Under the pieces are notes generated by a model. The model was given only the letters and a program-made list of their open reading frames with translations. It ran no database searches and had not been told where the DNA came from. DNA of 64,000 nucleotides from the NCBI GenBank assembly GCA_965261085.1, contig OZ253442.1, positions 96,001 through 160,000 of the forward strand, in the 5' to 3' direction. This stretch comes from a bacterium. GTDB lineage: Bacteria > UBA8248. A program made the translations under genes and the position numbers. Positions 32,063 to 59,761 of the stretch are shown piece after piece (the first letter of the stretch is position 1; every line of letters starts with the position of its first letter).

Positions 32063-32066
32063 GTTT

Positions 32067-39526: not shown

Positions 39527-39603
39527 GATAACTCCCTTACTCCGTAAGTTGATGGCATGTATCCACCGCAACGGTCATAGCAGAAACGTCCGGAGGAGAC
39601 CTC

Positions 39604-41064
39604 CTAACCATTCTCCTTCTCCAAAGCCTCCCTGCCGAACCGCTCTATTGTCTCGAGCGTTTCGCGCACGTCGTCCCAGGTCGTATTATGATTGATGATG
39701 CAGAGCCTGAGCGCAAACTTTCCCTTGAGAAGCGTCGATGAGAAGAAGGCTCGGTCGTCCCAGAAGATGCAGGCGAGCATCGTCTTGTTGATCTCCCCCA
39801 GGGCTTCCTCGCCGGGGTCTGATTCCGCCGGATTGACCCGGAAGCACACCACCCCAAGCGAGACGGGCGTCAACATCTCCAGAACCAGGCTCTCGCGAAC
39901 GTACTCCTCGGCACGCTCGGCCAGCTCCATTCCCTTCGAGACGGCTCGGCGGAACGCGGCCATCCCGAAGGTCTGCACCGACATCCAGACTTTCAAGGCC
40001 CGGAACGAGCGGCTCAGTTGCAGGCCGCGATCCGAGAAGTTCGGGTGGTTCGCGCCCCATATCGTATCCTGGAGAATATCGTGCCGCACCGCGAAGGCGC
40101 GCTCAAGCATACTCGTGTCCTTCACGAGCAAGGCGCCCGCCTCGTAGGGCTGAAAGAACCACTTGTGCGCGTCCATTCCAATCGAATCGGCGCGCTCCAT
40201 GCCGCGCATGAGTTCCTTGCCCCGCTCGGTCACGACCGCGAAGCCGCCGTAGGCGGCGTCGACGTGCAGCCAGATGTCTTCCGCCTCGCAGAAATCCGCC
40301 ATCGCCTCGAGCGGGTCGACCGCTCCCGTGCTGACCGCTCCGGCGTTGGCGCACACCGCGATGGGGTGAAGCCCCGCCGCGCGGTCTTCGGCCACGGCGC
40401 GCGCGAGGGCTCCCATATCCAGGCGGAAATCTCCGTCGCTCGGGAGCACCCTGATGCGCTCGGGCTTGACGCCGATGATCCGCACCGCGCGTATGTGGGC
40501 GCTGTGGCTCTGGTCGCTCATGTAGACGCTCGCGCGATCGGGATGCCCCGCGCTTTCACGCGCCGTAACGAAGGCATCCAGGCTGGCCGCCGAGCCTCCG
40601 CTCGTCAGGAGTCCGCCCGCGCCCTCGGGATAGCCGACCCAGCGCCGGAACCAGTCGATGACGACCAATTCGAGCTGGCTCGGGCCGCTCGCGATGAGCC
40701 AGGTGGCCGAGTTGACGTTGAAGCCCGCGGCCAGGAAGTCGGCCAGTACGCCGGGCCAGGTGGGTGAGGTGGGAATGAAGCCGAAGAAGCGGGGATGATC
40801 GTTGCGCCCCGTGAGAGGGAGAATATCGCGCGCGGCCCGCTCGAGAACATCCATCGCCGGCCGTCCCTCCTCGGGCGGAGCCTCCAGCAACTGTTTCTCG
40901 AGTTCCTGCTGGAAATCTCCATCCCAGGCCCCTTCTCCCGGCAGCTTCTCGATTCGCTCCACCAGGAGTTCCGCCGCCCTGCGCGCCAGATCGAGCATCT
41001 CTTCGGGAGCCATCCGGAGATCATCGCCTCCCGGGCCAGACGCTTCTCTTCTTGAGTCTTCCAT
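39604..41064 (-). CDS. PLP-dependent group II amino-acid decarboxylase (aromatic L-amino acid decarboxylase-like)
   Basis: HPRFFGFIP, TSGGS, WLHVDAAYGG, DAHKW PLP lysine, LSRSFRALKVW. Confidence 0.88.
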   Translation of the reverse strand: MEDSRREASGPGGDDLRMAPEEMLDLARRAAELLVERIEKLPGEGAWDGDFQQELEKQLLEAPPEEGRPAMDVLERAARDILPLTGRNDHPRFFGFIPTSPTWPGVLADFLAAGFNVNSATWLIASGPSQLELVVIDWFRRWVGYPEGAGGLLTSGGSAASLDAFVTARESAGHPDRASVYMSDQSHSAHIRAVRIIGVKPERIRVLPSDGDFRLDMGALARAVAEDRAAGLHPIAVCANAGAVSTGAVDPLEAMADFCEAEDIWLHVDAAYGGFAVVTERGKELMRGMERADSIGMDAHKWFFQPYEAGALLVKDTSMLERAFAVRHDILQDTIWGANHPNFSDRGLQLSRSFRALKVWMSVQTFGMAAFRRAVSKGMELAERAEEYVRESLVLEMLTPVSLGVVCFRVNPAESDPGEEALGEINKTMLACIFWDDRAFFSSTLLKGKFALRLCIINHNTTWDDVRETLETIERFGREALEKENG

Positions 41065-41555
41065 AGAGCCCCTCCTATCGTCCCAGAATAATTTGGAACA
41101 CATAACGGGTCCGATGGCACTAAAAGTGAATGGAGCCCTCGTTGCTCCATTCCCAACCGGGTTCGGAACTCGAACACATGAATATAAAACATTCTTTCCG
41201 ATTGTATGTCCCGAAACTATGATTAATTCAGATCATCGAGTCAAGATGCCGCTCGAAATTCCCGCTCCCGCCCCGGCCACCGGGCGTATCCGGCGCAAGG
41301 CGCCCACAACTACATTGAACCAACAATAAGGCGATGAGTTGCCAAACACGGAGAAATTCTATATGTTGAGAAGCACTTTTTTCAAAGAAATGGTCCTGTA
41401 TGACTAAGTTGCCTGTCCGAGAATTAGTGGGGTAGACTTGCGTTCATGCAAGAAGAGGTGTTGCGCTAGGTGTATTGAATTTGCTATCTGTTCAAACACC
41501 CTCGGGGTATTGGGTCAATAAAGAAACCTCACGCTGTTGGGAGGCAGAGCCAAGC

Positions 41556-42037: not shown

Positions 42038-44227
42038 TCACCGAGGCAACTCGATGATCATTTCCGTGAACTCATCAGGCTCGGTTTCCACTCGTATGCT
42101 TCCCCCATGCTGACGAATAATGTCGCTGGATAGGGAAAGGCCGAGCCCGGTGCCCTTGTCCGTCGGCTTGGTCGTGAAGAAGGGGTTGAATATCTTCTCG
42201 ACGACTTCGGGCGGCATACCGCTCCCGTTGTCACGAATGCGGATCTCGATGCCGTCCGGCCTGCACCTGGTGAAGAGGCGAAGGGTGGGGTCGTAACGCG
42301 GCGCATCTTCGGCGGCTGAGGCGGCGTGACTTTTTCGTCTCTCGTCCGTGGCGTAGCTGGCGTTGCTCACCATGTTCAGGAAGACACGGCCCAAATCCTG
42401 TGGAATGACCTCGCACTCCACCATGTCGGGGTCCAAATCCCAATCGATCGTGAGGTTGAAATTCGGGTCGGCCGCCCGGGCGCTGTGATAGGCGAGACGC
42501 GCGTGCTCTTCGAGCAGGGTATTGATATTGGTCGGCTGCGCTTCGCCTGAACCCCGGCCCATCTGGAGCATGCTCTCCACGATGTTGTTGGCCCGTTCCC
42601 CGTGTTCGCGGATGCGCTTGAGGTTGCCGGTGAGGTCCTCTCCGATTTCGTTGATGATCTCGATCGGATCTTCCTCGTCCTTTTTTTTCTCCTCCTTATC
42701 CGTTTCTTGCCCATTTTCCTGTCCGTTGCCGCCGAGTTGCGCCACCTTCTCCAACTCTTCCAACAATTCCTCCATCAGCTCCTCGGAGACTTCCGAGAAG
42801 TTCTTGATGAAGTTCAGCGGATTCCTGATCTCGTGGGCCACGCCCGCCGTCAACTCACCGAGCGCCGCGAGTTTCTCGCGCATGACGATCTGATCCTGCG
42901 CCTTCTCCAGATCGCCCAGCGCGCTTTCGAGTTCCTCATTCTTGCCCTTGATCTCCTCGGCCAGCTTCTCCACCAGGTTCAGGCGCTGCACCTCCAGGGC
43001 GTGGCGGCGGAAGATTTCGAGCGCCGCGGCCATTTCCGCGACTTCGTCCTGCCCGCCGATGTCGACCTTCTCCTCCAGATCGCCGTCGGCCATTCGGCGC
43101 ATGCGGTCCGAGAGCCGCCCCAGCCGGCGCGACAGCACCCGGCCGATGAACAGCCAGCCGATCAGTACGGCGCCGATGAAGCTGATTGCGCTCAGCGCGA
43201 GCAGGATGTTGCCGCCCGTGCTGACGGCTTGGGCGGAATCCTGGGTGGCCTGCCGCGCGCTCTTGCGGGCCGTGCTCACCAGCGTTTCGGTGGCGGCCAG
43301 GATTTTCGCTTCCAGAGATTCGTGAAACGCGAGCAACTCACTCTGTTTCCTCTCGAGCTCCAGTTCACCCGCGCGCAGGTTGAAGCCCCCATCCTCCCCG
43401 ATGCTCAGTTCGATCATCTGCTCGAAGAGAGGCTCGAGAGCGGTGCGCACCGGAACCTCCCCGAGCGCGGCAAGACGCCGCCTGATGCCGCGCACCGTGG
43501 CCTCGAAACGCTCGCTCAGCGGTTCGAGCAGGGCGGCGTCCGATACGCTGAAGGCGGTGGCGAAAAGCTGCGTCGCGATGGTGGCGTCCGACCTTAAACC
43601 GGCGATGTAACGGTAGAGGTTGATTCCCTCTTCGGAGAAGTGTTTCTCGCGGGGGACGGCAGCCTCGTCGATTTTGCGATAGCCCGTTATCGCGTAGAAC
43701 AACTGATCGTCGATGGCGGGAACCATGACGTTGTTCAGCTCCTTGCGCACCCATGTGAGCTGGAGTTGCAGCGTATCGCGCTGATCGGTGAGGTCGAAGC
43801 GCTGCAACACCAATTGTTTGATGGCTCTGAGGTTCTCGATTAGCACGTCGCCGAGCTTCTTGATGCGCAGGGAGATTTCCTCGTTTACTCCCTGTCGTAT
43901 CAGCGCCGCCAGCGCAGTCTCGAACGCCTCCTGGTCATTGGCGACTTCGGTGGCGATCTGGTCCAGATTGTCGGGATTCACGACTGCGGCCAGGCGCGGC
44001 GCGGCGGCCACCAGGGCGCTGCTTTTCTGGGCGGTCTCGAAGGCGCTCGCCAGGAACGGAACGGTGCCCTCGTTCACGCGGTTCTGCACCTCTCCCACGA
44101 AAGCGAACGAGACCCATGCGACCACGCTCGCTATGACGGTGAGAGAGGCGGCGGCGCCGATGCTGAGGTAGAGTTGCATCGATATCTTGTAACGCTTGTC
44201 CAGGAGGTTTTTCAGCGCGCCTTTCAT
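42038..44227 (-). CDS. Membrane sensor histidine kinase (TorS-like helical periplasmic region, HAMP, HisKA, HATPase)
   Basis: Two TM segments, HAMP (DEVAEMAAALEIFR), AGVAHEIRNPLN H-box, DNGSG, FNPFFTTK, GTGLGL; start coupled to the upstream stop. Confidence 0.88.
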   Translation of the reverse strand: MKGALKNLLDKRYKISMQLYLSIGAAASLTVIASVVAWVSFAFVGEVQNRVNEGTVPFLASAFETAQKSSALVAAAPRLAAVVNPDNLDQIATEVANDQEAFETALAALIRQGVNEEISLRIKKLGDVLIENLRAIKQLVLQRFDLTDQRDTLQLQLTWVRKELNNVMVPAIDDQLFYAITGYRKIDEAAVPREKHFSEEGINLYRYIAGLRSDATIATQLFATAFSVSDAALLEPLSERFEATVRGIRRRLAALGEVPVRTALEPLFEQMIELSIGEDGGFNLRAGELELERKQSELLAFHESLEAKILAATETLVSTARKSARQATQDSAQAVSTGGNILLALSAISFIGAVLIGWLFIGRVLSRRLGRLSDRMRRMADGDLEEKVDIGGQDEVAEMAAALEIFRRHALEVQRLNLVEKLAEEIKGKNEELESALGDLEKAQDQIVMREKLAALGELTAGVAHEIRNPLNFIKNFSEVSEELMEELLEELEKVAQLGGNGQENGQETDKEEKKKDEEDPIEIINEIGEDLTGNLKRIREHGERANNIVESMLQMGRGSGEAQPTNINTLLEEHARLAYHSARAADPNFNLTIDWDLDPDMVECEVIPQDLGRVFLNMVSNASYATDERRKSHAASAAEDAPRYDPTLRLFTRCRPDGIEIRIRDNGSGMPPEVVEKIFNPFFTTKPTDKGTGLGLSLSSDIIRQHGGSIRVETEPDEFTEMIIELPR

Positions 44228-45411
44228 CACTTCTCCGGTCGCCGGATTTTTTCGGTCGGAATGTAACGGCCGCCCTCTCCGATGACGGTGAGGAAAACGG
44301 CGTCCGAGCCCTGGTTGTCGTCCTTGCCGTAGCGGAGCTTGAATCCGCCGAGGTCGATGTTGGCCGCACGGCGCAGACCCTTGAGAAGACAGTCGCGATC
44401 GGGCTTGCGCCCGCACAACTCAAGAGCACGAATGGCCAGTCTGCCGGCCATGTAGCCCTCGAAGGAAACGAAGCTGGGAGCCGCACCGGGCTTGTGGGCT
44501 TCCAGATCCCGGCGGTAGTCCGCCGCGATCTGGAGGTTCTCCGTCGTCGGGAATGGAACCACCTGGGTGACGTAGATACCAATGCCGGCGGGGCCGAGTT
44601 CACGCACGAGCGCATTGCTGCCCACGAAGGAGATCGTCACGAAAACCGGATTGAAATTCATATGGCGCGCCCAGGCGATGAAGGAAGCGACCGGCTTGTA
44701 GGCTCCCACGAGGACCACCGCCCCGGGGTTCGCGCGCCTGATGTCGAGCAGAGCCGTTTTGACCGCCGTCGTATTTCGTGGATAGACTCCGGTGACCGCC
44801 GGTTTGAGTTTGCGCCGCGCGAGGGCGCGACGAACGCCCCGGTAGCCCGCCAGACCAAAAGAATCGTCCTGATAGAGAACGGCTATCTTCTTGATGCCCA
44901 GGTCATTGATCAGCCGGTTCACCATCTCCTCGGTTTCCTGGAAGTAGGAAGCGCGCAGGTTGATGATGTTCTTCCACTTCGGATCGCGAAGGAAGGCGGC
45001 GCCGGTGAAGGGCGCGATATAGGGGACGCCCGCCTTCGCGGCGACCGGGGTGGCCGAGCGCGAGGTGGGCGTGCCGACGGCCCCGATGAGGGCGAAGACC
45101 TTGCTCTGTTCTATCAACCGGCGGGTGTTCAGGATGGCGGCTTCAGGCTCATACGCATCGTCGAGGGAGGTGATTTCGAGCCGGCGCCCGTGAATGCCGC
45201 CACGCACGTTCGCCGCGCGAAAGGCGGCTTCGATGCCGAGGCGCATCTCCTCGCCCAGAGCCCTCGCGGGTCCGGTGAAGGCGGCGGACTGGCCGAAAAG
45301 AATCCGCTGGGGGGAAACCCCGGGCACGGCCGCGTGCGCCCCCGGCGCCGAACAGATAATCACTCCGGCAAGAAGGGAAAGCGCCCGGCGGATTCGGAGC
45401 GGGAGCCTCAT
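44227..45411 (-). CDS. Periplasmic ligand-binding protein (branched-chain amino acid / PBP1 type)
   Basis: Signal peptide, GQSAAFTGP, GGIHGR, DDAYEP, GTPT, RASY, YQDDSFG. Confidence 0.88.
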   Translation of the reverse strand: MRLPLRIRRALSLLAGVIICSAPGAHAAVPGVSPQRILFGQSAAFTGPARALGEEMRLGIEAAFRAANVRGGIHGRRLEITSLDDAYEPEAAILNTRRLIEQSKVFALIGAVGTPTSRSATPVAAKAGVPYIAPFTGAAFLRDPKWKNIINLRASYFQETEEMVNRLINDLGIKKIAVLYQDDSFGLAGYRGVRRALARRKLKPAVTGVYPRNTTAVKTALLDIRRANPGAVVLVGAYKPVASFIAWARHMNFNPVFVTISFVGSNALVRELGPAGIGIYVTQVVPFPTTENLQIAADYRRDLEAHKPGAAPSFVSFEGYMAGRLAIRALELCGRKPDRDCLLKGLRRAANIDLGGFKLRYGKDDNQGSDAVFLTVIGEGGRYIPTEKIRRPEK

Positions 45412-45827
45412 TCACTCCTCCGCTTGACAAGGCGCATATGGTTCTTGTTCTCCTCCCGTCGATAGGACACCTCGTCCATCATCGTCCGCACCAGATGGAT
45501 GCCGAGCCCGCCCACGGCGCGGTCTTCGATGCTCGATTCGGTATCCGGTTCGGGCGCGTCGGTGAGAGGGTCGAACGGCCGGCCGTCGTCGATGATCTGG
45601 ATGCTCACCGCTTTCTCGTCCGAGACGAGTTCGATTTTGATTTCACCCTCTCCGCCGCCGCTGCCGTGGTTCACGACGTTGAGGACTAATTCTTCGAGCA
45701 CGAGGTCGACCTGGAATTCGATGTCGGGCGGCCAATCCTGCTCCCGGCTGAATTCCCCGATGGCGGCTTGAATGCGTGGGAGGTCGGCGACTTCAAACCC
45801 CATTTTCAAGGAAAGTTTCGCGCTCAT
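45408..45827 (-). CDS. Anti-sigma factor / Ser kinase (RsbW-like HATPase_c_2)
   Basis: EELVLNVVNHG, DDGRPFDP, GGLGIHLVR. Confidence 0.92.
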   Translation of the reverse strand: MSAKLSLKMGFEVADLPRIQAAIGEFSREQDWPPDIEFQVDLVLEELVLNVVNHGSGGGEGEIKIELVSDEKAVSIQIIDDGRPFDPLTDAPEPDTESSIEDRAVGGLGIHLVRTMMDEVSYRREENKNHMRLVKRRSE

Positions 45828-47041
45828 TCACTCCCTCCGCGGCGATAAAGGGTCAGGCAGGTAATATCATCGAATTGGGGTGCTCTGCCCGCGAAATCCT
45901 TCACCGACTCGAAAACCTTCGTGTTGATCTCCTTGGCGGAGGTCGGCGGCGAACCCCCGAGAATCCCCCGGAGGCGATCGAGACCGAACTGCTCGGTCTT
46001 CTCGTTCTCGGCCTCCGTCACGCCGTCGGTGTAGAGCACGAGGGCGTCACCTCTCGCGAGAGTCGCATTGTACATGTCGTAGTCGAATTCAGGCGCGATC
46101 CCCAGAGCGACCCCCGGAGCCTGGGCAAGCAGACTCGAGGAGCCGTCGGCATGGAGGATGACCGGGGGATTGTGCCCGCCGTTGGCGTAAACGAGTTCCC
46201 CGGTTGTGGAGTCGAAAATGGCGAAGAAGACGGTGACGAACATCACGGCGTCGTTGTTCTCCTGAAGGAGGCGGTTCACCTCGCTCAGCACGTCACCGGG
46301 CCGGAGCAGACGATTCACCTCGCCGAGCACGTCGCCCGGATTGGCGCGCGCGACGGCGACGCTGTTGAGCAGCGTGCGGCTCGACATCATGAAAAGGGCG
46401 GCGGCCACCCCCTTGCCCGAAACGTCGGCGACCATGATTCCGATGCGGTCGTCGGCCAAATTGATGACGTCGAAGAAATCACCCCCCACGTCACGGGCGG
46501 GTTCCATACCCCCGAATATCTCGTAGTGAGGGCTTTCGGGAAATTGGGTCGGCAGGATCGATTGCTGCATCCTGCTGGCCAGGTCGAGATCGCTCCTGAG
46601 CGCGACCAGCTTGTCGCGCGCATCAAGGGCCTCGCGCAGCATGGCGAGGTGCTCCAGTGTCCGCTCTATGGTGATCCGCAAATCCTCGAAGTCGATCGGC
46701 TTGGTGACGAAGTCGAATGCGCCCCTGTTCATCGCCGTGCGGATGTTCTTCATGTCCCCGTAGGCCGAGACGACCACGGAGCGCACATTGGGGTCGACCG
46801 AGGGGATTTGCTTGAGCAGCGTGAGGCCGTCCATCTCCGGCATGTTGATGTCGGTGAGCACCATGTCGATAGGCTCGCCGCCGCCGTTATCGTTGAGGCG
46901 CTCGAGCGCCTCGACCCCGTTGCGCGCGAAGACGAACGAATAGCGGCCCCGCCGAATCTCGCGCCGCATGCGCTGGAGCACGAGTTGTTCGAGATCGGGC
47001 TCGTCGTCCACCACGAGTATCCTGTGGGGCTCTTCCATCAC
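45824..47041 (-). CDS. Receiver + SpoIIE/PP2C phosphatase (RsbU/RsbP-like)
   Basis: VVDDE, TDINMP, FDFVTKP; VGGDFFD, ADVSGKG, GGHNPP, YTDGVTEA, DDIT. Confidence 0.92.
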   Translation of the reverse strand: MMEEPHRILVVDDEPDLEQLVLQRMRREIRRGRYSFVFARNGVEALERLNDNGGGEPIDMVLTDINMPEMDGLTLLKQIPSVDPNVRSVVVSAYGDMKNIRTAMNRGAFDFVTKPIDFEDLRITIERTLEHLAMLREALDARDKLVALRSDLDLASRMQQSILPTQFPESPHYEIFGGMEPARDVGGDFFDVINLADDRIGIMVADVSGKGVAAALFMMSSRTLLNSVAVARANPGDVLGEVNRLLRPGDVLSEVNRLLQENNDAVMFVTVFFAIFDSTTGELVYANGGHNPPVILHADGSSSLLAQAPGVALGIAPEFDYDMYNATLARGDALVLYTDGVTEAENEKTEQFGLDRLRGILGGSPPTSAKEINTKVFESVKDFAGRAPQFDDITCLTLYRRGGSE

Positions 47042-47478
47042 GGCCTCCCTTCAGCCAGCATCTTGTCACGCGCCTCGAACGCCTCCCGCATATTAGCGAG
47101 ATGCTTCACGGACTTGTCGATGGTCAACCGCAGATCCTCGAAATCGATCGGTTTGTTGAGAAAATCGAACGCGCCCCGGTTCATCGCCGTGCGGATGTTC
47201 TTCATGTCCCCATAGGCGGAGACGATCACGCAGCGGACCTTGGGGTCGTAAGCCGGGATTTGTTCGAGCAGCGTGAGGCCGTCCATCTCCGGCATGTTGA
47301 TGTCCGTAATGACGATGTCGATTTCACCGTCCTCTTTCAGGCGTTCGAGCGCCTCGACCCCGTTGCGCGCGAAGACGAACGAATAGCGTCCGCTGCGAAT
47401 CTCGCTCCGCATGCGCTGCTTCAAGAGGTCTTCCAGGTCGGGTTCGTCGTCGACTACGAGTATCTTGTGCGAATCCAT
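47038..47478 (-). CDS. Stand-alone response regulator receiver protein
   Basis: VVDDE, TDINMP, FDFLNKP; near-identical to the REC domain of the downstream gene. Confidence 0.88.
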   Translation of the reverse strand: MDSHKILVVDDEPDLEDLLKQRMRSEIRSGRYSFVFARNGVEALERLKEDGEIDIVITDINMPEMDGLTLLEQIPAYDPKVRCVIVSAYGDMKNIRTAMNRGAFDFLNKPIDFEDLRLTIDKSVKHLANMREAFEARDKMLAEGRP

Positions 47479-47885
47479 CGTCCTGGTCTCCCCAACTCTC
47501 AGACTTTGCCCGACCAACGCTCAAACATTTTCGAACGCCCGCTCAATGTATATAAGACTCGCGCGTCGCGCAACTCATTTCTCACTCCGCCTCGTGTCCG
47601 AACGAGGCTGCGCGGCGGCCCGCAACCCCCTGAAACCAGGGCTTCACCGGCGCTCGCTCCCGGCTCGACACCGCTCGACCGGCGGATTTCATCCATCCCG
47701 ATTTCTCCTCCCGCGAGTGTTCCGACCTCCCGATCCCGTGAACCGATTCTGCGCCGAATGGAGATGAAGCCGTGAAAATTTCATCCGCCGCCGGTTGTTC
47801 CGGCCCTCTCGTTTGCGTATCTTGGAGTAGCCATCCGCCAGGATGGCGTGCGCCGCCGACAGCACTTGAAGAGAAAGGCCCTGCC

Positions 47886-48473
47886 TTGTCCCGCAAACAA
47901 TCAAGAAAAATGAAAAATCCCGGTCCCACAGGGCGCGGCGCTTCGCGTCCGGCGGCGGCCATAGGTTCAAAGAACAACAGCACGGCCCCGCTCGTCTGGG
48001 CGAGCGTCATCGTCGCGGTCGTCTTCGGCATCTATTACTTATCGGGCGCATCCGCGAACAAGGCGCGCGACGCGCCCTCCCTCGGCAACCGCCACATCCG
48101 CGTCGGCACGAGCCCCGCCATCTCCTATAATACGGACCCTCCCACCTCGGGGCCCCATTATCCGACCATCGTCCGCTGGGGCGTGCACCAAAGGCCCATC
48201 GACAAGGGCTTCCAGGTGCATAACCTCGAAGACGGCGGCGTGCTCGTTCAGTATAACTGCGGCGATTGTCCCGAACTCGTGAAAAAACTCAGAAATCTGG
48301 TGCTCGGCTACCCGAAGTTCGTCATCCTCGCCCCCTACCCGTCCATGAAACACAGAATCGCGCTCACCGCCTGGGGCAAAATAGATACGCTGGACGCTTT
48401 TGATGAAAAGCGCATCACCTCCTTCATAAACGACTTTCGCGGCATCGACCACCATGTGCGGGGAAGCAGATAA
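47886..48473 (+). CDS. DUF3105 family membrane-anchored protein
   Basis: TM helix, YNTDPPTSGPHY, VHNLEDGGV.VQYNC, IALTAWG; start uncertain. Confidence 0.8.
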   Translation: MSRKQSRKMKNPGPTGRGASRPAAAIGSKNNSTAPLVWASVIVAVVFGIYYLSGASANKARDAPSLGNRHIRVGTSPAISYNTDPPTSGPHYPTIVRWGVHQRPIDKGFQVHNLEDGGVLVQYNCGDCPELVKKLRNLVLGYPKFVILAPYPSMKHRIALTAWGKIDTLDAFDEKRITSFINDFRGIDHHVRGSR

Positions 48474-48479
48474 GGCTTC

Positions 48480-50252
48480 TCAACTCCCCCCGCCGCGCGC
48501 CGCGCCTGCGGCTTCCACGCGAACCGTCACGATGTCCGTATCGTGGTATTGCTGGTGGCGAACCGAGGAGGCGAGGTGGCGCAGCAGTCTGAGCGAGACT
48601 TCTCTCTCGATCGGCGCGGCTGCCGTCTGCTCGCCGAGCAGCGCGATTTTATCCTGGAGATTCTCCTCACCGCCCGCGGCGACGAACTCCAACACCGCGC
48701 CGCCGTCTTCTTTGTGGGCCACCACGAGCAGACGCCGCCGCTCGCGACCCTCGTCGGCTTCCTCCTGGCGCAGAAGCGTCAGCAGCGTCTCCTCACCCGC
48801 GGCGTCCAGGCGATGCGCCATCGCCGCATCCCAGCCACCGGCCGAGGCGAACTCGCCGAGAAACTCCCTTATCTTCGGTAAGGCCGAGAGGTCGAACGCC
48901 ACTTCGAGCCTGCTGCGCCGCGGTTCGGTGAGCTCGACGAACAGGGTCATGATCATGGCGACGAGGCCGCCGGCGGTCATTCCGTTACCCAGCAGGCCGC
49001 CCGCGAACGTGGAGAAATACTCAGGGTAAATCACTCCGTTCTGAAAGCCGACGCCCGCCCAGAACGCGACGCCCGCGACCAGCCCCTTGCGGTAGTCGAC
49101 TCCGTCCTGAACGATCATCCGCATGCCGACCACGAAGAGCATCGCCAGCAATACGGTGATGTAGGCCGCGGCGACCGGACCCGGTATCGCGAGCACCACG
49201 GCGACGAGCTTGGGAAGAAACGCCAGGGAGAGGAACACCAGCCCGGCGGCGACTCCGACGCTGCGCGCGCCGACGCCGGTGAGTTCGGTGACGGACACGC
49301 TCGTCGAATAGGTCGTGTTCGGCACCGTCGCCAAAAGGCCGGAGAGCAGGTTGCCCACCCCGTCGGCGGCCACCGCGCCCTGCACCGCCTTAAAATCCAC
49401 CGCCCGGGGCCGCCGCCAGGACACGCGCTGGATGGCGGCGGCGTCGCCCACGGTTTCGATGGCGCCGATCAGGGTCACGAACACGAACCCGGGAAGAAGC
49501 GCCCAGAAAACCGGCCCGAAGCTCAGATCCAGGCCCGGCCACGCGCCGTGGGGAAGGCCGATCCACGAGGCCCCGGCGACGCGGGCCGTATCGTAGATGC
49601 CGAAATAGCCTCCGATGAGCGAGCCCGCGACCACGCCGACCACCGGCGCCCACAGGCGCAGCGCCCCCGTCGCCTTGAGCGCGATGCCGACGATGACGGC
49701 CACTGTCGCCAGAGCGCTCAACGGGGCGGCGAGCGGCGGGCTGTCCTTCGGCACGTCCTTGAGCATGCCGAAGACTATCGGCATCACCGTCACCGCTATC
49801 AGCATGATGACGGTCCCCGCGACCGTCGGCGTCAGCACCCTCCTGAACAGGGAGAGGCGTTCTGAGAGCACGAACTGAAACAGCGAGGAGGCGAGAACCA
49901 GCGTGGCGAGCATCGCAGGTCCTCCCTGGGCGAGCGCCGCGATGCATACCGCGATGAAGGCGCCCGAGGTGCCCATGATGAGCACGTAGCCCGCGCCGAA
50001 ACGGCCGATGCGCACCGCCTGGAGCACCGTAGTCGCGCCGCAGACCGCCACCGCGGCGAACACGGCCCACGAGAGATAGGCCTCGGTTCCGCCGGCGGCC
50101 CGCACCACGATCGCAGGCGTGAAAACGATACCGCCCACGCAGAGGATGGCGAGTTGCAAACCCAGACCGAACGCGAGAAAGAACGGCGGTTTTTCGTCGG
50201 CTTCGTAGCGTACGCCGGTGTTCACGTGCTGGCCGGAATCCCTGGCGCTCAT
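48480..50252 (-). CDS. NCS2 (xanthine/uracil) family permease with C-terminal degenerate RsbW-like domain
   Basis: Y..DEKPP, LGLQ, IETVGD, ADGVGN, PNTTYS...LTGV NCS2 signature; ~140-aa soluble tail that aligns with the RsbW at 45408. Confidence 0.82.
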   Translation of the reverse strand: MSARDSGQHVNTGVRYEADEKPPFFLAFGLGLQLAILCVGGIVFTPAIVVRAAGGTEAYLSWAVFAAVAVCGATTVLQAVRIGRFGAGYVLIMGTSGAFIAVCIAALAQGGPAMLATLVLASSLFQFVLSERLSLFRRVLTPTVAGTVIMLIAVTVMPIVFGMLKDVPKDSPPLAAPLSALATVAVIVGIALKATGALRLWAPVVGVVAGSLIGGYFGIYDTARVAGASWIGLPHGAWPGLDLSFGPVFWALLPGFVFVTLIGAIETVGDAAAIQRVSWRRPRAVDFKAVQGAVAADGVGNLLSGLLATVPNTTYSTSVSVTELTGVGARSVGVAAGLVFLSLAFLPKLVAVVLAIPGPVAAAYITVLLAMLFVVGMRMIVQDGVDYRKGLVAGVAFWAGVGFQNGVIYPEYFSTFAGGLLGNGMTAGGLVAMIMTLFVELTEPRRSRLEVAFDLSALPKIREFLGEFASAGGWDAAMAHRLDAAGEETLLTLLRQEEADEGRERRRLLVVAHKEDGGAVLEFVAAGGEENLQDKIALLGEQTAAAPIEREVSLRLLRHLASSVRHQQYHDTDIVTVRVEAAGAARGGGS

Positions 50253-50637
50253 CTCGCATCCTTCCCGGCTGGAAAGCGGGTCTTCGGTGGAGCGGAAACC
50301 TGCGTTCGATGTGGTCGCAACCGAACCGGATTTTCTCACACCTCTTTTTGTCCCTCAAGAAAAAAGGCCTGCGAAGGACATCGATGGGCGAATGTTCAGG
50401 GTTTGAGGCGAAAATCGCATTTTTTGCGTATTTTTTTGGCGGGCAATTACAATTTTGTTGACGAAACGAACACGCCATATATACTTTTCGGGTAACGTCT
50501 TCTTATTTTGCCTGGACATAAGGGCGGCAAAGCAACCACTCTCTCCCGGACACGGCGGCTATGGAGCCCCGGCGGGAGAAAGTGAGGAAGCACTGCCCGC
50601 TTTTGGAGCAGGCTTATCATCTGGAGAACTCGAAACA

Positions 50638-50925
50638 GTGAAAACCGTAGAGGAAGTGCGCGAGGAAATTATCAGAAAGGCGAGCGAGAACGAGGCGTTC
50701 CGCTCCGAATTGCTGGCCGACCCCAAGGCCGCCATTGAACGGGAATTGGGGGTCACCATTCCCGATGGGTTCAAGATCGGCGTGCACGAAGACAACATCA
50801 TGAGCTTTCACCTGGTGTTGCCGCCGGCCGAGTTGAGCGAGGCGGACCTGAGCGCCGTCGTGGCCGGAACGCAGACGATGCAAGACTTCGCCAACGCCTG
50901 GAACAACTTGAACCAGAACTCCTGA
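50638..50925 (+). CDS. NHLP (nitrile hydratase-like leader) RiPP precursor peptide
   Basis: IIRKA.ENEAFRSELLADPKAAIERELG..IP....VHED....HLVLP..ELSEADL.AV.AG leader; core TQTMQDFANAWNNLNQNS; GTG start after GGAG. Confidence 0.88.
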   Translation: MKTVEEVREEIIRKASENEAFRSELLADPKAAIERELGVTIPDGFKIGVHEDNIMSFHLVLPPAELSEADLSAVVAGTQTMQDFANAWNNLNQNS

Positions 50926-51120: not shown

Positions 51121-52218
51121 ATGATGTCTGAGAATTTCGGGGACGTCTTTCCAAGGTTGCGCCGCTTTTTCCCATCCTCCCTGCTTGACGACCCGTGGTG
51201 GGATCGGCTGGTGGAGCGCGTCGGCGAACTTCCGAGTTGGCTGACCCTGAACTACGCAGCCTTCGAGTTCCGGTTGGGAGACCCTGCGCCCGCCGCCGAT
51301 TATTTCGTCTCGGTTACGCCCGGGCGTCCATCCATGGAGTATTACGTCCACCTGGGCGAGGACGCAAAACCGGACTCCGCCGAGGCGGCCCTCGCCCGGG
51401 TCTACGCCCGCATGAACGGGGCGGGCTCCCCTTCCGAATCCTCTCTCGCCGGCTGGTTCAGAGCGTCGATGCTCGAATACGACATCGCGGAGATTCCTTT
51501 GAACCAGCGACAGCCCCCGGGCGTGTTCCTGGCGCTTCAGCCTCAATCCGAACTGGATGAAAACCTCGTGGGTTCGCGAACTCCTGACCGCCTGGCCGCC
51601 ACCATAGTGAGCGCGGTCGGGTGGGACGAGGACGAGGAAGAGCGCCGCGCCGTGGAACGGGCCTTCGCCGCCTTGCCCCGGGACGGCGTGGTGGATCAGA
51701 TCGGCGCCGCGGCGCAGCGCGAGCCGCGCTCCATCCGCCTCATCGTGGACGGGTTGAAAGGGCGCAACATGCCGGCTCTCCTGAAGCGGCTGAAATGGGA
51801 AGGCCCCACCCGGAAGGTGATGGACGTTTTAGAGGAGATGCGCGACGTGACGCCGGTCTTCCGGCTCGCGGTGGACGTCGGCGCGCACGGCGTGGGGCCG
51901 CGCCTGGGCCTCGAGATGTACAGGCCGAGAAAACCCTCGAACCTCGACTACTGGCTGACCTCGGGGCGCAACGCCTGGCGTCCCGTCGTGGACTACCTCG
52001 AAGAGATGAAATGGTGTCTGCCGGAAAAGGGAGACGGCCTGCGCGCATTCCCGGGAATCGAGCGAATTTTCGATGAAAACGGCATGTCCATCCTGTATAA
52101 GGGAATCAACCACTTCAAGCTGTCCATCGAGGGCGACGCCGTCGAGGCCAAGGCCTACGCCGCCCTCGCCTACTTCCGGCTCTACGCTCCCTCCGAGGAA
52201 GAATCTGAGCCGGCGTGA
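51121..52218 (+). CDS. Uncharacterised protein, putative RiPP maturase (PT-barrel prenyltransferase-like)
   Basis: Codon usage matches the backbone; directly follows the NHLP precursor; strand-like motifs FEFRL, LEYD, PGVFL, QIG..R...IRL, GPRLGLE, NHFKL...AKAY. Confidence 0.55.
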   Translation: MMSENFGDVFPRLRRFFPSSLLDDPWWDRLVERVGELPSWLTLNYAAFEFRLGDPAPAADYFVSVTPGRPSMEYYVHLGEDAKPDSAEAALARVYARMNGAGSPSESSLAGWFRASMLEYDIAEIPLNQRQPPGVFLALQPQSELDENLVGSRTPDRLAATIVSAVGWDEDEEERRAVERAFAALPRDGVVDQIGAAAQREPRSIRLIVDGLKGRNMPALLKRLKWEGPTRKVMDVLEEMRDVTPVFRLAVDVGAHGVGPRLGLEMYRPRKPSNLDYWLTSGRNAWRPVVDYLEEMKWCLPEKGDGLRAFPGIERIFDENGMSILYKGINHFKLSIEGDAVEAKAYAALAYFRLYAPSEEESEPA

Positions 52219-52309
52219 TCGGGGGGGGCGGGGGGCGGTCAATCAGACGGCGGGGTGGTTTTTTGGAGAAGTAATTATACGCTTGTCTAACTATATAAGG
52301 AATTTATAT

Positions 52310-53560
52310 TCAAATTGATATTTTGGTTTGCTTGGGCAACAATTTGTCAAAATCACTTTTATTAATCAAATTATCAGCAAATCCTCTCATGACAATATAT
52401 GGCCGCATCAGTGGACTGTTAAAACGATAGCGTATCTGACGTTTTGGACCCGTTCGATAAAGAAGTCCTCCACGTTCTTTACCACTCAATTCTTTCAGGT
52501 GACGGGCGAAATTTGGAATATCATATGAGCGATTCGTGATAATTCGCAAAGGTTCCCGAACATTCGCTGCAGAGAAATATCCGAGGTCGTCATTCTCAGC
52601 GAATGCACAAGCCAAAACAACTTCTCTGAAGATGTGACCTGGTTGCTGGCTCTTGGTTGCACGATAATACGCCATCTTGATTGATTCTTGCCATTGTTCG
52701 AGGGCTCTTTCCATTCCTTCGTTTACGTCTTGATTTTCAAGCTCTTTACTTTCTCTCTTTATTGCCACCTTTGTAGCGTGAAGCGCGAGCAGGTGGGTAA
52801 CATATGGCAAACCCTGAGACAGGCTAACAATTTCTGATTTTGCATCATCTTTAATTTTCATCTGTAGTCGCCCCATGCCTTTTGCAACAATTTCGGCAAT
52901 TTCAGTGTTTGACATACGCGGCATCGGTACTTGGACAAGCGCTCGTTCGATGGATTGATGCTCGCTGATCAATTCGTCTACAGAATCTGCGACACCGATC
53001 AGAAGAATTGTAGCTTTAACACTATAATCAGAAAGACTTTTGATTGTGTCAGCCATTACGGCGGGAATTTCACTGTTCACTGTCCGATCGAACTCATCAA
53101 ATACTGGAACAAGAATAATTCCGTGTGAAAATTCATCTAAAATTCTACGAATATCTTCTGGAGATAAATTTTCAGGAAGGCTCTCCACAAGTTTCCGTCT
53201 AACACTAACTTCTTGTTTGGTAAATCCAACCCCAGGACGTGTCGCAGTTAAGGTGATGTTGTCAAACTGTTTTTTCCACAGACTTGTGAATGTATCAGTT
53301 GTGTCACAATTTACGCGTGGAAGGAGAAATCTTCCGCCAGTTTTGTGCAAAAAACTTAAAAGGACATTAGATAATGAAGTCTTTCCAACTCCACGCTCAC
53401 CATAAAGAACCGCATGGTAACCACGCTGAGAAATAGTGTCGATTATCTTATTTACTTGGTCAATCCTACCCGAAAATAATTCAGCCTCACTGATTGGGGC
53501 ACCCGGCGTGAACACTTGGTTCGCATTAAACTCTAACTCAGCCCAATAATCGCTCGCCAT
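52310..53560 (-). CDS. AAA+ ATPase (ORC1/Cdc6- or STAND-like) with probable C-terminal winged helix
   Basis: FTPGAP, FSGR, GERGVGKTS, VFDEFD, SQGLPY..H; AT-rich. Confidence 0.8.
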   Translation of the reverse strand: MASDYWAELEFNANQVFTPGAPISEAELFSGRIDQVNKIIDTISQRGYHAVLYGERGVGKTSLSNVLLSFLHKTGGRFLLPRVNCDTTDTFTSLWKKQFDNITLTATRPGVGFTKQEVSVRRKLVESLPENLSPEDIRRILDEFSHGIILVPVFDEFDRTVNSEIPAVMADTIKSLSDYSVKATILLIGVADSVDELISEHQSIERALVQVPMPRMSNTEIAEIVAKGMGRLQMKIKDDAKSEIVSLSQGLPYVTHLLALHATKVAIKRESKELENQDVNEGMERALEQWQESIKMAYYRATKSQQPGHIFREVVLACAFAENDDLGYFSAANVREPLRIITNRSYDIPNFARHLKELSGKERGGLLYRTGPKRQIRYRFNSPLMRPYIVMRGFADNLINKSDFDKLLPKQTKISI

Positions 53561-53588
53561 ACGCCACCTCAAGCGTCTAGTAAAGAAG

Positions 53589-53735
53589 TAAACTCATATA
53601 ATAACACCTTAATCTTGTCAAGTATTAGGCTGAACGCCGTCGTTTCGCCTTGCGACTAATAAACTGCTAAACTCATATAGTAATGCCTTAATCTTGTCAA
53701 GTATGAGACTGAACGCCGTCGTTTCGCTTTACAAC
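53589..53735. repeat. Imperfect tandem duplication (79-bp period)
   Basis: TAAACTCATATA.TAA..CCTTAATCTTGTCAAGTAT.AG.CTGAACGCCGTCGTTTCGC at 53589 and 53668; each copy has TTGACA on the minus strand. Confidence 0.8.
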
Positions 53736-53857
53736 CCGAGGGTAAGCTTTGCCTAACGCGGAAGGAGCTAATCAACGATGCAGTAGATCGTCAGGCAAAG
53801 CGCATCGCCTTCGTGGACGAGAATCTGACTAATCCTTCTGCCGGAGCAATCCAATGA
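53729..53857 (+). pseudogene. Probable C-terminal remnant of an upstream DUF488 gene
   Basis: Frame reads LQPEGKLCLTRKELINDAVDRQAKRIAFVDENL...Q*, with its TGA overlapping the next ATG; resembles the tail of the first gene of tandem DUF488 pairs (recalled, not searched). Confidence 0.45.
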
Positions 53858-54291
53858 AATTATTCACCACCGGATTTACCAATAAGTCGGCATGCCGTTT
53901 CTTTGACCTACTTCTGGAATCGCGTGTGAAAAGGATTTTGGGCGTTCGAATCAACAACGGGTCGCAACTCGCCGGTTTCGCCAAGAAGGACGATCTCTCG
54001 TACTTCCTCGAAAAGATTTGTGGAATGGATTATGTTCATCTGCCAGACCTCGGCGCCACGAAGGAGTTATTACGGGAGTATCAAGCAGGAAACTTAGATT
54101 GGGAGACCTATGAAAAGCGTTTCACAGAGTTGATGCGTGAACGACGCATTGAGGAAACGACTCCAAAAGATGTTCTAAGCGATGGCTGTCTTTTGTGTAG
54201 CGAAGATCAGCCACATCATTGCCACCGTCGACTCGTAGCGGAATATCTAAACGAACATTGGAGAGACATCGATATCTCCCACTTGCGTTAA
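53854..54291 (+). CDS. DUF488 family protein
   Basis: FT.GFT.KSA..FF, VR.NN.SQLAGFAK, LLCSE..PHHCHRRLVAEYL. Confidence 0.88.
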   Translation: MKLFTTGFTNKSACRFFDLLLESRVKRILGVRINNGSQLAGFAKKDDLSYFLEKICGMDYVHLPDLGATKELLREYQAGNLDWETYEKRFTELMRERRIEETTPKDVLSDGCLLCSEDQPHHCHRRLVAEYLNEHWRDIDISHLR

Positions 54292-55181: not shown

Positions 55182-55502
55182 CTACGAAATCGCGGCGTCC
55201 CCCGCCACGAGCACGACGTGATCGGTTTCAATGCGCCGCCTGAAATGCTCGGGCACGGAATCCCACACGAATACGTCCACGCGAAAAGGCAGGCTGCTCT
55301 CCTCTAACGCTTCTTTGAGATCGTAGACTCTTCGGCTTTGGGCGGGCTCGGCGAACACGACCATATCCAGATCGGATTTGGGGCGCGCTTCTCCCCTCGC
55401 GCGGGAGCCGTACACCCAGGCGGCGGTGTTCGGCAGATGCTTATCGAGCAAACCCAGAATGAGCGCGCGCTGCGCCTCGGTGACGTCGATGGTCTTGGTC
55501 AT
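55182..55502 (-). CDS. Minimal nucleotidyltransferase (MNT antitoxin)
   Basis: YGSRARG....SDLD, LPFRVD; its ATG overlaps the upstream HEPN stop. Confidence 0.88.
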   Translation of the reverse strand: MTKTIDVTEAQRALILGLLDKHLPNTAAWVYGSRARGEARPKSDLDMVVFAEPAQSRRVYDLKEALEESSLPFRVDVFVWDSVPEHFRRRIETDHVVLVAGDAAIS

Positions 55503-55911
55503 TCCCATGTCCGTTTGGTCATGGTTTGGTAGAGACCCGCGGCGTCTTCAATGAAATCACCCACTATCTCCAAAGCGGCTCGCGCCTTTTCGCCGCTGTA
55601 GGCGTGGGCGGTATCGCGGCATAGCCCAGCCATCGCTCCAGAGGCGCAGGGAGCATCAAATCGTTCTCGAAGGCGAGTCTGAAGACGGGCTTGGGGCTGT
55701 TGGGCGCATTCGCGACGCCCAACTCTTCGACCAGGTATCGCTTGGGCACCTTCCAGAGGCAGTCGTAGCAGGTCTCGAAACGCTGGATGACCGACTCGGC
55801 GACGGCTTCTCTGAGCAGTTCGGGTAGTACGGCGTCGGGTTTCCGATAATTCTCATACTGCTCTTCCAGACGTTTGAGGGACATCCGAAAATTGTCGTAC
55901 TCAACCATCAT
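55499..55911 (-). pseudogene. HEPN / nucleotidyltransferase substrate-binding (HI0074-like) toxin, frameshifted
   Basis: IQRFETCY..LWK, SPKPVFR; after WLGY the homologous tail RDTAHAYSGEKA...FIEDA..LYQTMT...WE* continues in another frame. Confidence 0.78.
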
Positions 55912-56322
55912 ACGCCTCACAACGTCGAAAAACCTTCATCCGCATCGGGCCTCGACCATCATCCCACAAGGCATGAATTTGTCAATAAATCGCACAGGCG
56001 CATTTGCCCGCATCTGCGGTGCGGCGGGACCGGGCCGGTTCGGGTAGATTCCGGGAAGCGTTTCTTGGAGGAGAACACATGCGTAGATGCCGAAATTCAG
56101 AGGGCGCGCTTCACTTTAGAGATCGCACGAGGGACGCAAGAATTCAGAATAATGCAAATAATCAAATTTCCTGTAAAATTAGATAAATTGACGAGGTTAT
56201 TCGATAAATTAACGGGGTATTTCTAAAAATAAACGAACCATAAAACGGCTCTTTTTCAGCGCAAAACGGCCCTTTTTCGGCTGAAAACCTGGGCTTTCGC
56301 CCCTTTTCGGGGCTAAACGGCC

Positions 56323-58537: not shown

Positions 58538-58660
58538 AATGGCTCCTGGTATAGAAATGGACTCAAGGTATGAGTCAAGATGTATCATAGACGAGTTCCC
58601 AAAGCCATGAGAGCATCTGGAAGCCTCCTGTTCCAAGTAGCCCGAACCCAAGGGAGTACG

Positions 58661-59761
58661 ATGGCAAAGCGAACGATCACATGTTTCTTGCTCGGTATCG
58701 CCCTGGCCGCCTGTGGCGGCGAGGGGGATTTCTCCTCCACGGGAAACATGAATACCCCCCGTCATGGGCACACGGCCACAAAACTCGAGTCAGGTGAAAT
58801 ACTCATCACCGGCGGACTCACCAAAACTTCTCCGCTCGATGATTTCGAGATATACGATCCGGTCCAGGGAATCTTCAAACCCTACAAGATTCAAGGCTTG
58901 CAGGCCCGGGGGTGGCATAAGGCCATCCTGCTGAAAGGAGGAGTGCTGATTTCCGGGGGCTGGACGAATGGCGGCAAAGCGCTCAGAGACGCTTTTCTCA
59001 CACAACCCGGCGCGGGGCTTCGCGCACGCGCCATGATGAAATACGGCCGTTATGATCATACGGTGACAAAGCTGCCTACCGGAGACATACTCATCGCAGG
59101 CGGCAACGATGGAAAACGCGCCATCCCCCACTTGGAAATATATGCGCCCGACAAAAAGCGTTTCATGCCTGCGCGAAGGCCCATGCTCATGGCGCGCCAG
59201 CAGCACAGCGCCACCATGTTGCACGGAGGCGCCGTGCTGATCCTCGGCGGCGCGGAAGGAAAAGGGGCACGATACGCGGAGCTGTACCTGCCTACTCAAG
59301 GAAGAACACGCCTGGTTCGAAGCCTGACGACACAAAGGAGCCGCCATAGCGCCACACGACTGAAGGATGGGGAGGTCCTCATTGCAGGCGGCCTGGGCAA
59401 AGATAAAACGCTCGATAGCGCTGAAATCTTCGACCCGGCGACGGGAAAATTCATCCCGTTAAAAAACAAACTGCACGCCAAGCGCCAGCAGCATACCGCC
59501 ACATTACTCTCGGACGGCAGAGTCGTTCTCATCGGCGGCTGGGGTGGCGAGGGGCGGACCCTGGCCAGCGCGGAAGTGTTCGAGCCCGAAAAAAGATGTT
59601 TCTGGCTGCTGGGAGTCGAGATGAAGTTTCCCAGACGCCTTCATTCGGCCACTTCACTGGGAGGAGGGCGGGTTCTCATCGCTGGGGGCGCATCTGACAG
59701 CGAAGTTCTGAAATCAGCGGAAATTCTCACCATCACGCGCGAAGGAAAAAGCGGATGCTGA
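58661..59761 (+). CDS. Kelch-repeat lipoprotein
   Basis: LAAC lipobox; repeats of R..H.AT.L..G.VLI.GG...AE.(Y/F)DP. Confidence 0.88.
   Translation: MAKRTITCFLLGIALAACGGEGDFSSTGNMNTPRHGHTATKLESGEILITGGLTKTSPLDDFEIYDPVQGIFKPYKIQGLQARGWHKAILLKGGVLISGGWTNGGKALRDAFLTQPGAGLRARAMMKYGRYDHTVTKLPTGDILIAGGNDGKRAIPHLEIYAPDKKRFMPARRPMLMARQQHSATMLHGGAVLILGGAEGKGARYAELYLPTQGRTRLVRSLTTQRSRHSATRLKDGEVLIAGGLGKDKTLDSAEIFDPATGKFIPLKNKLHAKRQQHTATLLSDGRVVLIGGWGGEGRTLASAEVFEPEKRCFWLLGVEMKFPRRLHSATSLGGGRVLIAGGASDSEVLKSAEILTITREGKSGC

Follow-up and report, generated by a model that had tools for sequence, protein, structure and literature searches.

An NCS2-type permease fused to an RsbW-like domain without ATP-binding motifs, and its linkage to a partner-switching module in two bacterial lineages

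The fusion gene and its permease domain

We analyzed a stretch of 64,000 nucleotides (hereafter the window) that corresponds to positions 96,001 to 160,000 of contig OZ253442.1 (GenBank assembly GCA_965261085.1), from a bacterium of the GTDB lineage UBA8248. Our subject is a gene at 48480..50252 on the reverse strand, for which an earlier reading of the letters alone (the original prediction) had proposed an NCS2 nucleobase permease fused to a catalytically dead RsbW-like domain. The gene call was confirmed: the open reading frame (ORF) extends over 48480..50339, and an in-frame ATG at 50252 gives a protein of 590 amino acids, a length common to many of its closest homologues. The protein consists of a permease domain and a C-terminal tail (Table 1). 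In an AlphaFold2 (AF2) model of the full-length protein (predicted local distance difference test score (pLDDT), 82.2; predicted TM-score (pTM), 0.74), transmembrane helix 14 (TM14) comprises residues 424-442 and is followed by a four-residue linker and then by the first strand of the tail (447-452). An Rfam scan of the window found no riboswitch upstream of the gene.

The membrane part is an NCS2 member by both Pfam and fold. The Xan_ur_permease model PF00860 matched residues 30-402 (E 9.4e-43; 146.8 bits against a gathering cut-off of 27), and a phmmer search of PDB sequences returned UapA (E 8e-16). When the full-length model was compared with known structures by Foldseek, the best match was again UapA (5i6c; E 2.4e-16; TM-score 0.63 on the query and 0.77 on the target), followed by UraA (TM-score 0.82-0.83) and SVCT1, and then by SLC26 transporters from E 1.1e-8 (SLC26Dg, 5da0); the matches listed aligned about 440-490 columns to the 590-residue model. 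These comparisons support a 14-helix fold of the UraA/UapA type with a 7+7 inverted repeat for the modeled membrane domain, and the fold is common also to SLC26, as the original prediction had held.

The Glu and the Asp of UapA TM8 are conserved in the fusion protein in the phmmer alignment. Members of the NAT family carry a signature in TM10 that begins Gln/Glu/Pro-Asn-x-Gly. This signature is lacking here, because TSVS stands opposite the QNNG of UapA in the same alignment. The protein also fell short of the NCBIfam thresholds for ncs2 (score 162.7, cut-off 291.8), pbuX (185.6 against 414.15), and NCS2_1 (36.8 against 40), and we therefore regard the fusion permease as a divergent branch of NCS2. 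The NCS2 assignment of the original prediction stood; given the TM10 residues, the substrate need not be a nucleobase, and a nucleobase is an assumption. Compared with the NCS2/NAT transporters (SLC23: UapA, UraA, XanQ, and SVCT1), the fusion protein shares PF00860, the 14-helix fold, and the two acidic TM8 residues, but it differs in TM10 and in carrying a GHKL domain of about 146 amino acids after TM14, which is absent from the solved members.

Homology and fold of the tail

The tail of the window's protein matched no Pfam family even at E <= 10 and no NCBIfam model at E <= 1, and no STAS domain was found in the fusion protein with Pfam. It nevertheless resembles the RsbW-type protein encoded 2.6 kb away. 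BLASTP aligned a tail segment without gaps to the N-terminus of this RsbW, with 13 of 48 positions identical and 28 positive (pairwise E 6e-7), just as the original prediction had written the alignment. We then compared profiles, using an alignment of 50 tail sequences (A1) and a 28-sequence alignment of RsbW proteins (A2). A1 matched the single RsbW of the window with a probability of 80% (E 1.4e-5; 50 columns), and the profile-profile comparison of A1 with A2 by hhalign raised this to 90.7% (E 1.2e-6; 78 columns), while a forced global alignment of the two profiles covered 128 columns (E 1.7e-6). The similarity was strongest in the N-terminal strand and the two helices that follow, and the conserved Trp and Glu-Glu of the N-box helix are common to tail and RsbW. 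Nine of the 50 family tails matched PF13581 (HATPase_c_2) at E <= 1; the best of them, P0204, spanned profile positions 5-123 of 127 and, at 26.2 bits, fell just short of the gathering score (27.4).

The predicted structure agrees. An AF2 model of the tail built from A1 (pLDDT, 86.0; pTM, 0.81) shows a strand, two helices, a hairpin, a helix, a further helix, and a hairpin, in this order. In a Foldseek search of the PDB with this model, 18 matches had E <= 1e-3, and the 13 listed are all anti-sigma serine kinases. The top match was UsfX (8ih8_C; E 7.2e-7; TM-score 0.65 on the query and 0.73 on the target), and the others were the SigF anti-sigma factor 8jzt, RsbW (6m37 and 6m36), and SpoIIAB (1th8, 1l0o, 1til, 1tid, and 1thn); over the 13 matches, TM-scores ranged from 0.51 to 0.65 on the query and from 0.63 to 0.76 on the target. 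The catalytic domains of histidine kinases and CheA matched only at E >= 7e-3. The ESM Atlas placed the tail near clusters of small proteins, in one of the three listed clusters with HATPase_c_2 on 15% of the members, which we take as a lead only. Sequence profiles alone miss the solved RsbW proteins, since the sole match of A1 among PDB sequences was GAL4 at E 0.19. When the tail was searched against PDB sequences as a single sequence, designed armadillo-repeat proteins were the only matches (E 6e-10), but across many repeated stretches, and we rejected this kinship as an effect of Ala/Gly/Glu composition.

Homology and fold of the tail as an RsbW/SpoIIAB-type GHKL domain of about 135 amino acids are thus supported by four independent lines. 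Because the tail fails every catalytic motif as well as the Pfam threshold, we call it RsbW-like rather than a member of the RsbW family. It shares with RsbW, SpoIIAB, and UsfX the fold, the order of secondary-structure elements, detectable homology, and the Trp and Glu-Glu of the N-box helix; it differs in being bound to a transporter, in lacking the N-box Asn, the G1 Asp, and the G2 glycines, and in having a C-terminal motif of its own.

Loss of the ATP-binding motifs and conservation of the tail

The loss of the ATP-binding motifs, noticed by the original prediction in one protein, proved to be family-wide. We audited the motifs across the best 150 listed representatives of a 50%-identity library, pairing positions by profile alignment. 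Asn50 of the RsbW N-box pairs with Thr48 of the tail, and this position is Asn in only 1 of 134 representatives, against Thr in 59 and Ser in 43. Asp80 of the G1 box pairs with Ala81; Asp was found in 0 of 146 representatives and Ala in 91. The next Gly of the G1 box, which the window's tail retains, is found in just 14 of the 146 representatives. The GGLG stretch of the RsbW G2 box pairs with a glycine-free stretch of the tail, and Gly occupies the five aligned positions in 6, 0, 3, 0, and 0 of about 140 representatives. In the global alignment the G2 register was shifted by one residue relative to the original pairing, a low-confidence region whose register could be off by about one residue, but the loss of glycines is the same in both. 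Since the loss extends over the family, it is old.

Losing these motifs has not relaxed the tail. Among 78 fusion proteins (3003 pairs), the mean pairwise identity stood at 0.675 in the tail, against 0.674 in the membrane domain. The tail also has near-invariant polar residues of its own, namely E43/E44, E78, N87, D90, S109, R111, H115, S119, H122, Y125, H126, and D129. Among the representatives, E44 was found in 131 of 133, N87 in 143 of 147, D90 in 135 of 146, S109 in 132 of 139, R111 in 134 of 139, H122 in 131 of 133, and D129 in 120 of 130. An invariant motif specific to the tail lies near the C-terminus, with the pattern SV[RYH]HQQYH. A decaying remnant is therefore excluded, because the tail matches the membrane domain in conservation and keeps this polar set. 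Judged from its residues, the tail is very probably not a kinase, and we are highly confident of the architecture and of the reading of the tail as a pseudokinase.

Family size and distribution

We searched for fusion proteins in three collections. With the tail as query against 90%-identity clusters, scoring 8000 fusion-length candidates at E <= 1e-3, the fusion was found in at least 3543 clusters. In the 120 clusters listed, the tails were 68-97% identical; PF00860 was the only precomputed domain in 119 of the 120, and a HATPase family was annotated in none. An exhaustive search of 50%-identity representatives gave 587 matches at E <= 1e-3 and 355 at E <= 1e-10, and in every full-length row checked among the best 150 of the 587 (about 570-600 amino acids) the tail lies at the C-terminal end. 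A scan of genomes, one per species, with an 8-sequence tail alignment yielded at least 577 confirmed fusion loci, of which we examined the best 80. A homologue search from a divergent member gave three matches and added nothing.

Permease and tail are encoded in one ORF in 80 of the 80 loci, and the fusion is obligate. We looked for stand-alone tails among entries shorter than 200 amino acids, but most of these begin inside TM14 and are thus fragments; one such cluster also has a 489-residue member. In a few short entries, such as P0175 (contig of 31 kb), the sequence begins just where the domain does, and these are candidate stand-alone tails. P0261 (397 amino acids) lacks a second domain, and past its tail the reading frame appears to be lost. 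Public names for these proteins, such as 'purine/pyrimidine permease', 'xanthine/uracil/vitamin C permease', and 'hypothetical protein', leave the tail unmentioned. In a full-text literature search, outside whose reach most subscription journals lie, we found no paper on an NCS2 permease with an RsbW-like tail, in agreement with the original view that the architecture is uncharacterized.

All 80 best loci are titled as metagenome-assembled genomes, and the cluster look-ups found no cultured organism, all organism-bearing names being marked as metagenome-assembled. By title, the 80 loci belong to Pseudomonadota (33), Nitrospirota (16), Nitrospinota (6), Latescibacterota (4), Binatota (3), Verrucomicrobiota (3), Spirochaetota (2), and four other phyla with one locus each, and nine have no phylum label. 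The membrane domain of the window is 60-79% identical to those at loci titled Acidobacteriota, Actinomycetota, Verrucomicrobiota, Binatota, and Latescibacterota. We placed 78 fusion proteins in a quick maximum-likelihood tree, leaving out three loci with ORFs shorter than 450 amino acids; the tree is at odds with taxonomy, rows from Spirochaetota, Actinomycetota, and Alphaproteobacteria, for example, being interleaved. The high similarity across phyla, together with a tree that does not follow taxonomy, suggests horizontal spread of the fusion gene. Four assemblies carry two paralogous fusion genes in different clades (L002/L018, L003/L014, L008/L062, and L061/L073). In three of these pairs, one copy falls in the clade of the window's lineage and the other in an unlinked clade, and the signalling module described below is present at L003 and L008 and not on the short contig L002; in the L061/L073 pair, neither copy is linked to the module.

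The signalling module beside the fusion gene

Genes of a partner-switching set are found near the fusion gene of the window; they encode a protein phosphatase 2C (PP2C)-type phosphatase, an RsbW-type kinase whose motifs are intact, and a STAS protein whose Ser loop could be phosphorylated (Table 1). Five module genes lie downstream of the fusion gene on its strand, with ends that overlap by a few bases. In the family of the window's RsbW, N50, D80, G82, G106, G107, and G109 are invariant in the 28-sequence alignment. The STAS protein passes TIGR00377 (78.4 bits against a cut-off of 53.45), and its S54 and S55 are invariant in an 11-sequence alignment. The response regulator-PP2C protein (RR-PP2C) resembles RssB and SiaA of Pseudomonas in NCBIfam matches below the cut-offs. 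TorS (TIGR02956) matched residues 78-499 of the histidine kinase at E 1.7e-48, also below the cut-off; because the ORF of the kinase overlaps the binding-protein gene, its true start probably lies downstream of 44416. No membrane or ATPase component of an ABC transporter is encoded beside the Peripla_BP_6 gene. A homologue of the DUF3105 gene was found in 9 of the 80 loci, all from the window's own lineage. None of the 56 window ORFs scanned belongs to a sigma-factor family; the ORFs at 37323-38396 and 58580-59761 lay outside the scan, and such a factor may be encoded elsewhere in the genome.

Table 1. Coordinates of the fusion gene, its two domains, and the neighboring genes in the window
Feature	Position	Strand	Evidence or remark
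Fusion gene, NCS2-type permease with C-terminal RsbW-like domain	48480..50252	-	590 amino acids plus stop
Permease domain, residues 1-444	48921..50252	-	PF00860, Foldseek, phmmer
Tail, residues 445-590; GHKL (Bergerat) domain of RsbW/SpoIIAB type without ATP-binding motifs	48483..48920	-	
DUF3105 gene, between fusion gene and signalling operon	47772..48473	+	PF11303, E 8.9e-26
Single-domain response regulator	47038..47517	-	PF00072, E 4.7e-27; 4-base overlap with next gene
Response regulator fused to PP2C (SpoIIE) phosphatase	45824..47041	-	SpoIIE, E 4.1e-52; Response_reg, E 1.2e-23
RsbW-type serine kinase/anti-sigma-like protein with intact N, G1, and G2 motifs	45408..45827	-	PF13581, E 7.4e-27, 94.3 bits
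Periplasmic binding protein, Peripla_BP_6	44227..45411	-	PF13458, E 5.4e-57; distant LivK/UrtA similarity far below cut-offs
Histidine kinase: TorS-like periplasmic sensor, HAMP, HisKA, HATPase_c	42038..44416	-	Pfam
Single-domain STAS protein (anti-sigma-factor antagonist) with Ser-Ser-Ala-Gly loop	41556..41894	+	PF01740, E 1e-19

The conservation of this linkage was surveyed in the 80 loci by single-sequence phmmer searches with the window proteins (E <= 1e-3) against six-frame ORFs from 8 kb on each side (16-kb loci). STAS, RsbW, RR-PP2C, binding protein, and kinase were all present in 20 loci, 8 from the window's lineage and 12 from Nitrospirales. Two further loci of the window's lineage (L010 and L011) are short contigs that end inside the module, and one locus (L064) has RsbW alone. 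An apparent RsbW at L072 was rejected, as the match was the tail of that locus itself. The gene order differs between the two lineages: in the window it is fusion gene, DUF3105, response regulator, RR-PP2C, RsbW, binding protein, kinase, and STAS, whereas in Nitrospirales it is fusion gene, convergent RsbW, STAS, RR-PP2C, binding protein, and kinase. In the tree, the module-linked loci form two separate, non-sister clades, the Nitrospirales clade being sister to a clade of 39 rows that contains the window's lineage and 28 unlinked rows (supports of 89 and 94).

A pyridoxal-phosphate-dependent decarboxylase (PF00282, E 1.4e-65) is encoded next to the STAS gene, together with a secreted double-Cache protein, at 38504-41103 (-). 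A homologue of the decarboxylase lies in the flank of 6 of the 80 loci, all from the window's own lineage. An amine-related substrate is conceivable for the sensing module or for the permease.

What the tail may do

The original prediction proposed a tail that docks the STAS protein or pairs with RsbW and so links solute uptake to partner switching. Its observation is confirmed and its interpretation is supported in part. In the best explanation that we can offer, which we hold to be a little short of probable, the tail is a non-catalytic interaction module that regulates the permease and that, in the linked lineages, is the target of the neighboring module. The tail would sit under the gate domain as a protein-interaction module and would stabilize, hold, or regulate the carrier, as does the STAS domain of SLC26. 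In the window's lineage and in the Nitrospirales clade, the module would in addition act on the permease post-translationally, through the tail. The binding protein and the TorS-like kinase would sense an external ligand, RR-PP2C would dephosphorylate the STAS protein, and the unphosphorylated STAS protein (or free RsbW) would dock on the tail, which could not phosphorylate and release it; uptake would change as a result. In favor of it stand the recurrence of the module, though in a minority of loci, in two separate clades with differing gene orders, and the lack of a sigma-factor gene among the window ORFs scanned. This direct link between module and tail is more doubtful than the regulatory role itself.

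Docking of STAS or of RsbW would have precedents among soluble proteins of Mycobacterium smegmatis. According to PMC7693655, neither RsbW1 nor RsbW3 phosphorylated RsfB in vitro, RsbW1 was shown in complex with the STAS protein RsfB, and RsbW3 binds RsbW1, for which the authors assume a heterodimer. RsbW1-RsfB and RsbW3-RsbW1 binding thus illustrate both docking modes. As is proposed for the tail, these RsbW-family proteins act by binding only, but they are soluble, act on a sigma factor, and have no transporter attached. Among systems with a similar set of components, SiaABCD and HptB-HsbR-HsbA of Pseudomonas use partner switching for outputs other than a sigma factor, namely a diguanylate cyclase or FlgM. 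They share with the module a PP2C phosphatase, an RsbW-type kinase, a STAS-like protein, and the absence of a sigma-factor target; we found no description of a permease as the output of partner switching. A stronger version of the docking model, in which the permease is the direct output of partner switching and dephosphorylated STAS or released RsbW docks on the dead RsbW domain and gates uptake, seems to us unlikely. The corollary that the extracellular sensor, composed of binding protein and kinase, would switch the carrier within seconds and without transcription must be considered no less unlikely.

Several results weigh against action of the module on the tail. In 57 of the 80 loci, neither STAS nor RsbW nor SpoIIE lies within 8 kb; among these, one has only a kinase and binding proteins (L068) and another only a receiver-domain ORF (L028). 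The linkage from which the original prediction argued thus holds here and in a second phylum, but most of the family has fusion genes that are not linked to STAS/SpoIIE genes, an outcome that the original prediction had itself named as counting against it. Nor did Pfam find further STAS, HATPase_c_2, or SpoIIE families among 42 representatives of recurrent neighbors (those in at least three loci). With most loci lacking the module, the general role of the tail cannot depend on an adjacent module. The two linked clades reflect either one old linkage that was later lost or two gains, that is, two events at most, and both linked lineages also have unlinked paralogues. Between the window and Nitrospirales, the permease is 67-71% and the tail 70% identical, while the module proteins are less so (binding protein, 58-60%; RR-PP2C, 46-48%; kinase, 37%; STAS, 35-37%; RsbW, 31-33%), and a tail at 70% beside STAS and RsbW at 31-37% is not what one would expect of partners in close co-evolution. 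The fusion gene and the module are not co-transcribed in either lineage, being separated by the opposite-strand DUF3105 gene in the window and by the convergent orientation of RsbW in Nitrospirales. Finally, only 4 of 590 positions separate linked from unlinked clades, and none of them lies in the conserved core of the tail. A predicted complex of the tail (A1) with the STAS protein (A4) scored 0.06 and 0.09 against a mark of 0.32, with no control runs, and weighs neither way on binding.

Much of this would also suit a tail that is purely structural, in which an RsbW-type dimer under the gate domains stabilizes the permease dimer and the adjacent module is unrelated and controls something else. 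RsbW and SpoIIAB are homodimers, and NCS2 transporters act as dimers via their gate domains. The scarcity of the module among the loci, the separate transcription units, a conservation of the tail that does not track linkage, and the four-residue tether to TM14 all favor such a role. STAS domains of bacterial SLC26 transporters are required for stability, according to PMC8256260. However, a scaffold of this kind leaves the same six-gene set beside the fusion gene in two phyla, with differing gene orders, to coincidence, and no sigma-factor gene that would be the usual output of the module is found among the window ORFs scanned. The many invariant polar residues, moreover, suggest a specific binding surface or site over a passive scaffold. 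On this evidence we consider the purely structural role somewhat unlikely.

The same polar residues could be read as a rebuilt nucleotide pocket, so that the tail would sense a small molecule (the transported compound or a metabolite) and exert allosteric feedback on transport. N87, D90, S109, R111, H115, H122, and D129 take the place of the ATP motifs, and a segment equivalent to the ATP lid is kept (residues 529-556), with a pLDDT below 50 in the full-length model, as expected of a mobile lid; a ligand would also account for conservation at loci without the signalling module. However, conserved residues occur on both faces of the beta strand 121-126, which an interface fits at least equally well, and the neighbors, which vary widely, point to no ligand. 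The other recurrent neighbors include parts of TRAP transporters, YCII, P-II with an ammonium transporter, polyamine enzymes, and a cell-shape operon. A role as ligand sensor is thus rather improbable. The transceptor of the original prediction, in which the transport cycle would alter sequestration of STAS or RsbW by the tail and solute flux would become an input to partner switching and gene expression, can draw on the linkage in two clades and on an RsbW-type fold that is a known platform for STAS and RsbW (the Foldseek matches are complexes with STAS proteins; see also PMC7693655), but we regard it as very improbable and unproven, since the module already has its own sensor in the binding protein and TorS-like kinase that feed RR-PP2C, no sigma factor or other output gene lies nearby for the permease to control, the module is absent beside most family members, and no result points to sensing by the permease as opposed to its being regulated.

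The regulatory interaction module, which we prefer, bears on an older observation. SLC26/SulP transporters belong to the same class of membrane fold and likewise carry a cytoplasmic alpha/beta domain directly after TM14, but theirs is a STAS domain, whereas the domain appended to the fusion protein is the kinase-type partner (GHKL). In PMC8256260, the kinship of the SLC26 STAS domain with anti-sigma antagonists is traced to Aravind and Koonin in 2000, and the role of the domain is described as not fully explored. In the sister transporter family we find its counterpart, a domain of RsbW type that has lost catalysis and is conserved like the carrier. If the permease were indeed the direct output of partner switching, the two kinds of transporter, NCS2 bearing an RsbW-like domain and SLC26 bearing STAS, would represent the two matching halves of an old partner-switching pair borne by transporters. 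If the tail is a dock for STAS or RsbW, a two-component sensor could act through it on a carrier directly and post-translationally, and it would offer a testable clue to the repeated recruitment of partner-switching domains by this transporter fold. Even if its role is only structural, the domain occurs in thousands of database proteins; in those checked, neither Pfam nor NCBIfam recognized it, and it merits a family model.

Other features of the window

Divergent from the fusion gene, an ORF at 50455-50925 (+) passes the NHLP leader-peptide model TIGR03793 for precursors of ribosomally synthesized and post-translationally modified peptides (65.8 bits against a cut-off of 50.9). It is followed by an ORF of 365 amino acids at 51121-52218 (+) with no Pfam or NCBIfam match, and homologues of both occur together in 8 of the 80 loci. 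The sole Rfam match in the window is a selenocysteine tRNA gene at 14882-14974 (+) (RF01852, 75.9 bits). An AAA_21 ATPase (AbiEii-like) and a RloB-like protein are encoded as a pair at 9861-11799 (+), which resembles a small defense or toxin-antitoxin-type module, and a protein of 434 amino acids encoded at 11918-13222 (-) is built mostly from RTX calcium-binding nonapeptide repeats, which were matched in 11 stretches. Two stretches have a low G + C content, 32001-34000 (0.47) and 52001-54000 (0.45), against about 0.6 in the rest of the window. They encode an HD-domain protein, an nSTAND1-type nucleoside triphosphatase, and a DUF488 protein, and are probably acquired islands. Beyond them, a nucleotidyltransferase and its substrate-binding partner are encoded as a pair at 55182-55920.

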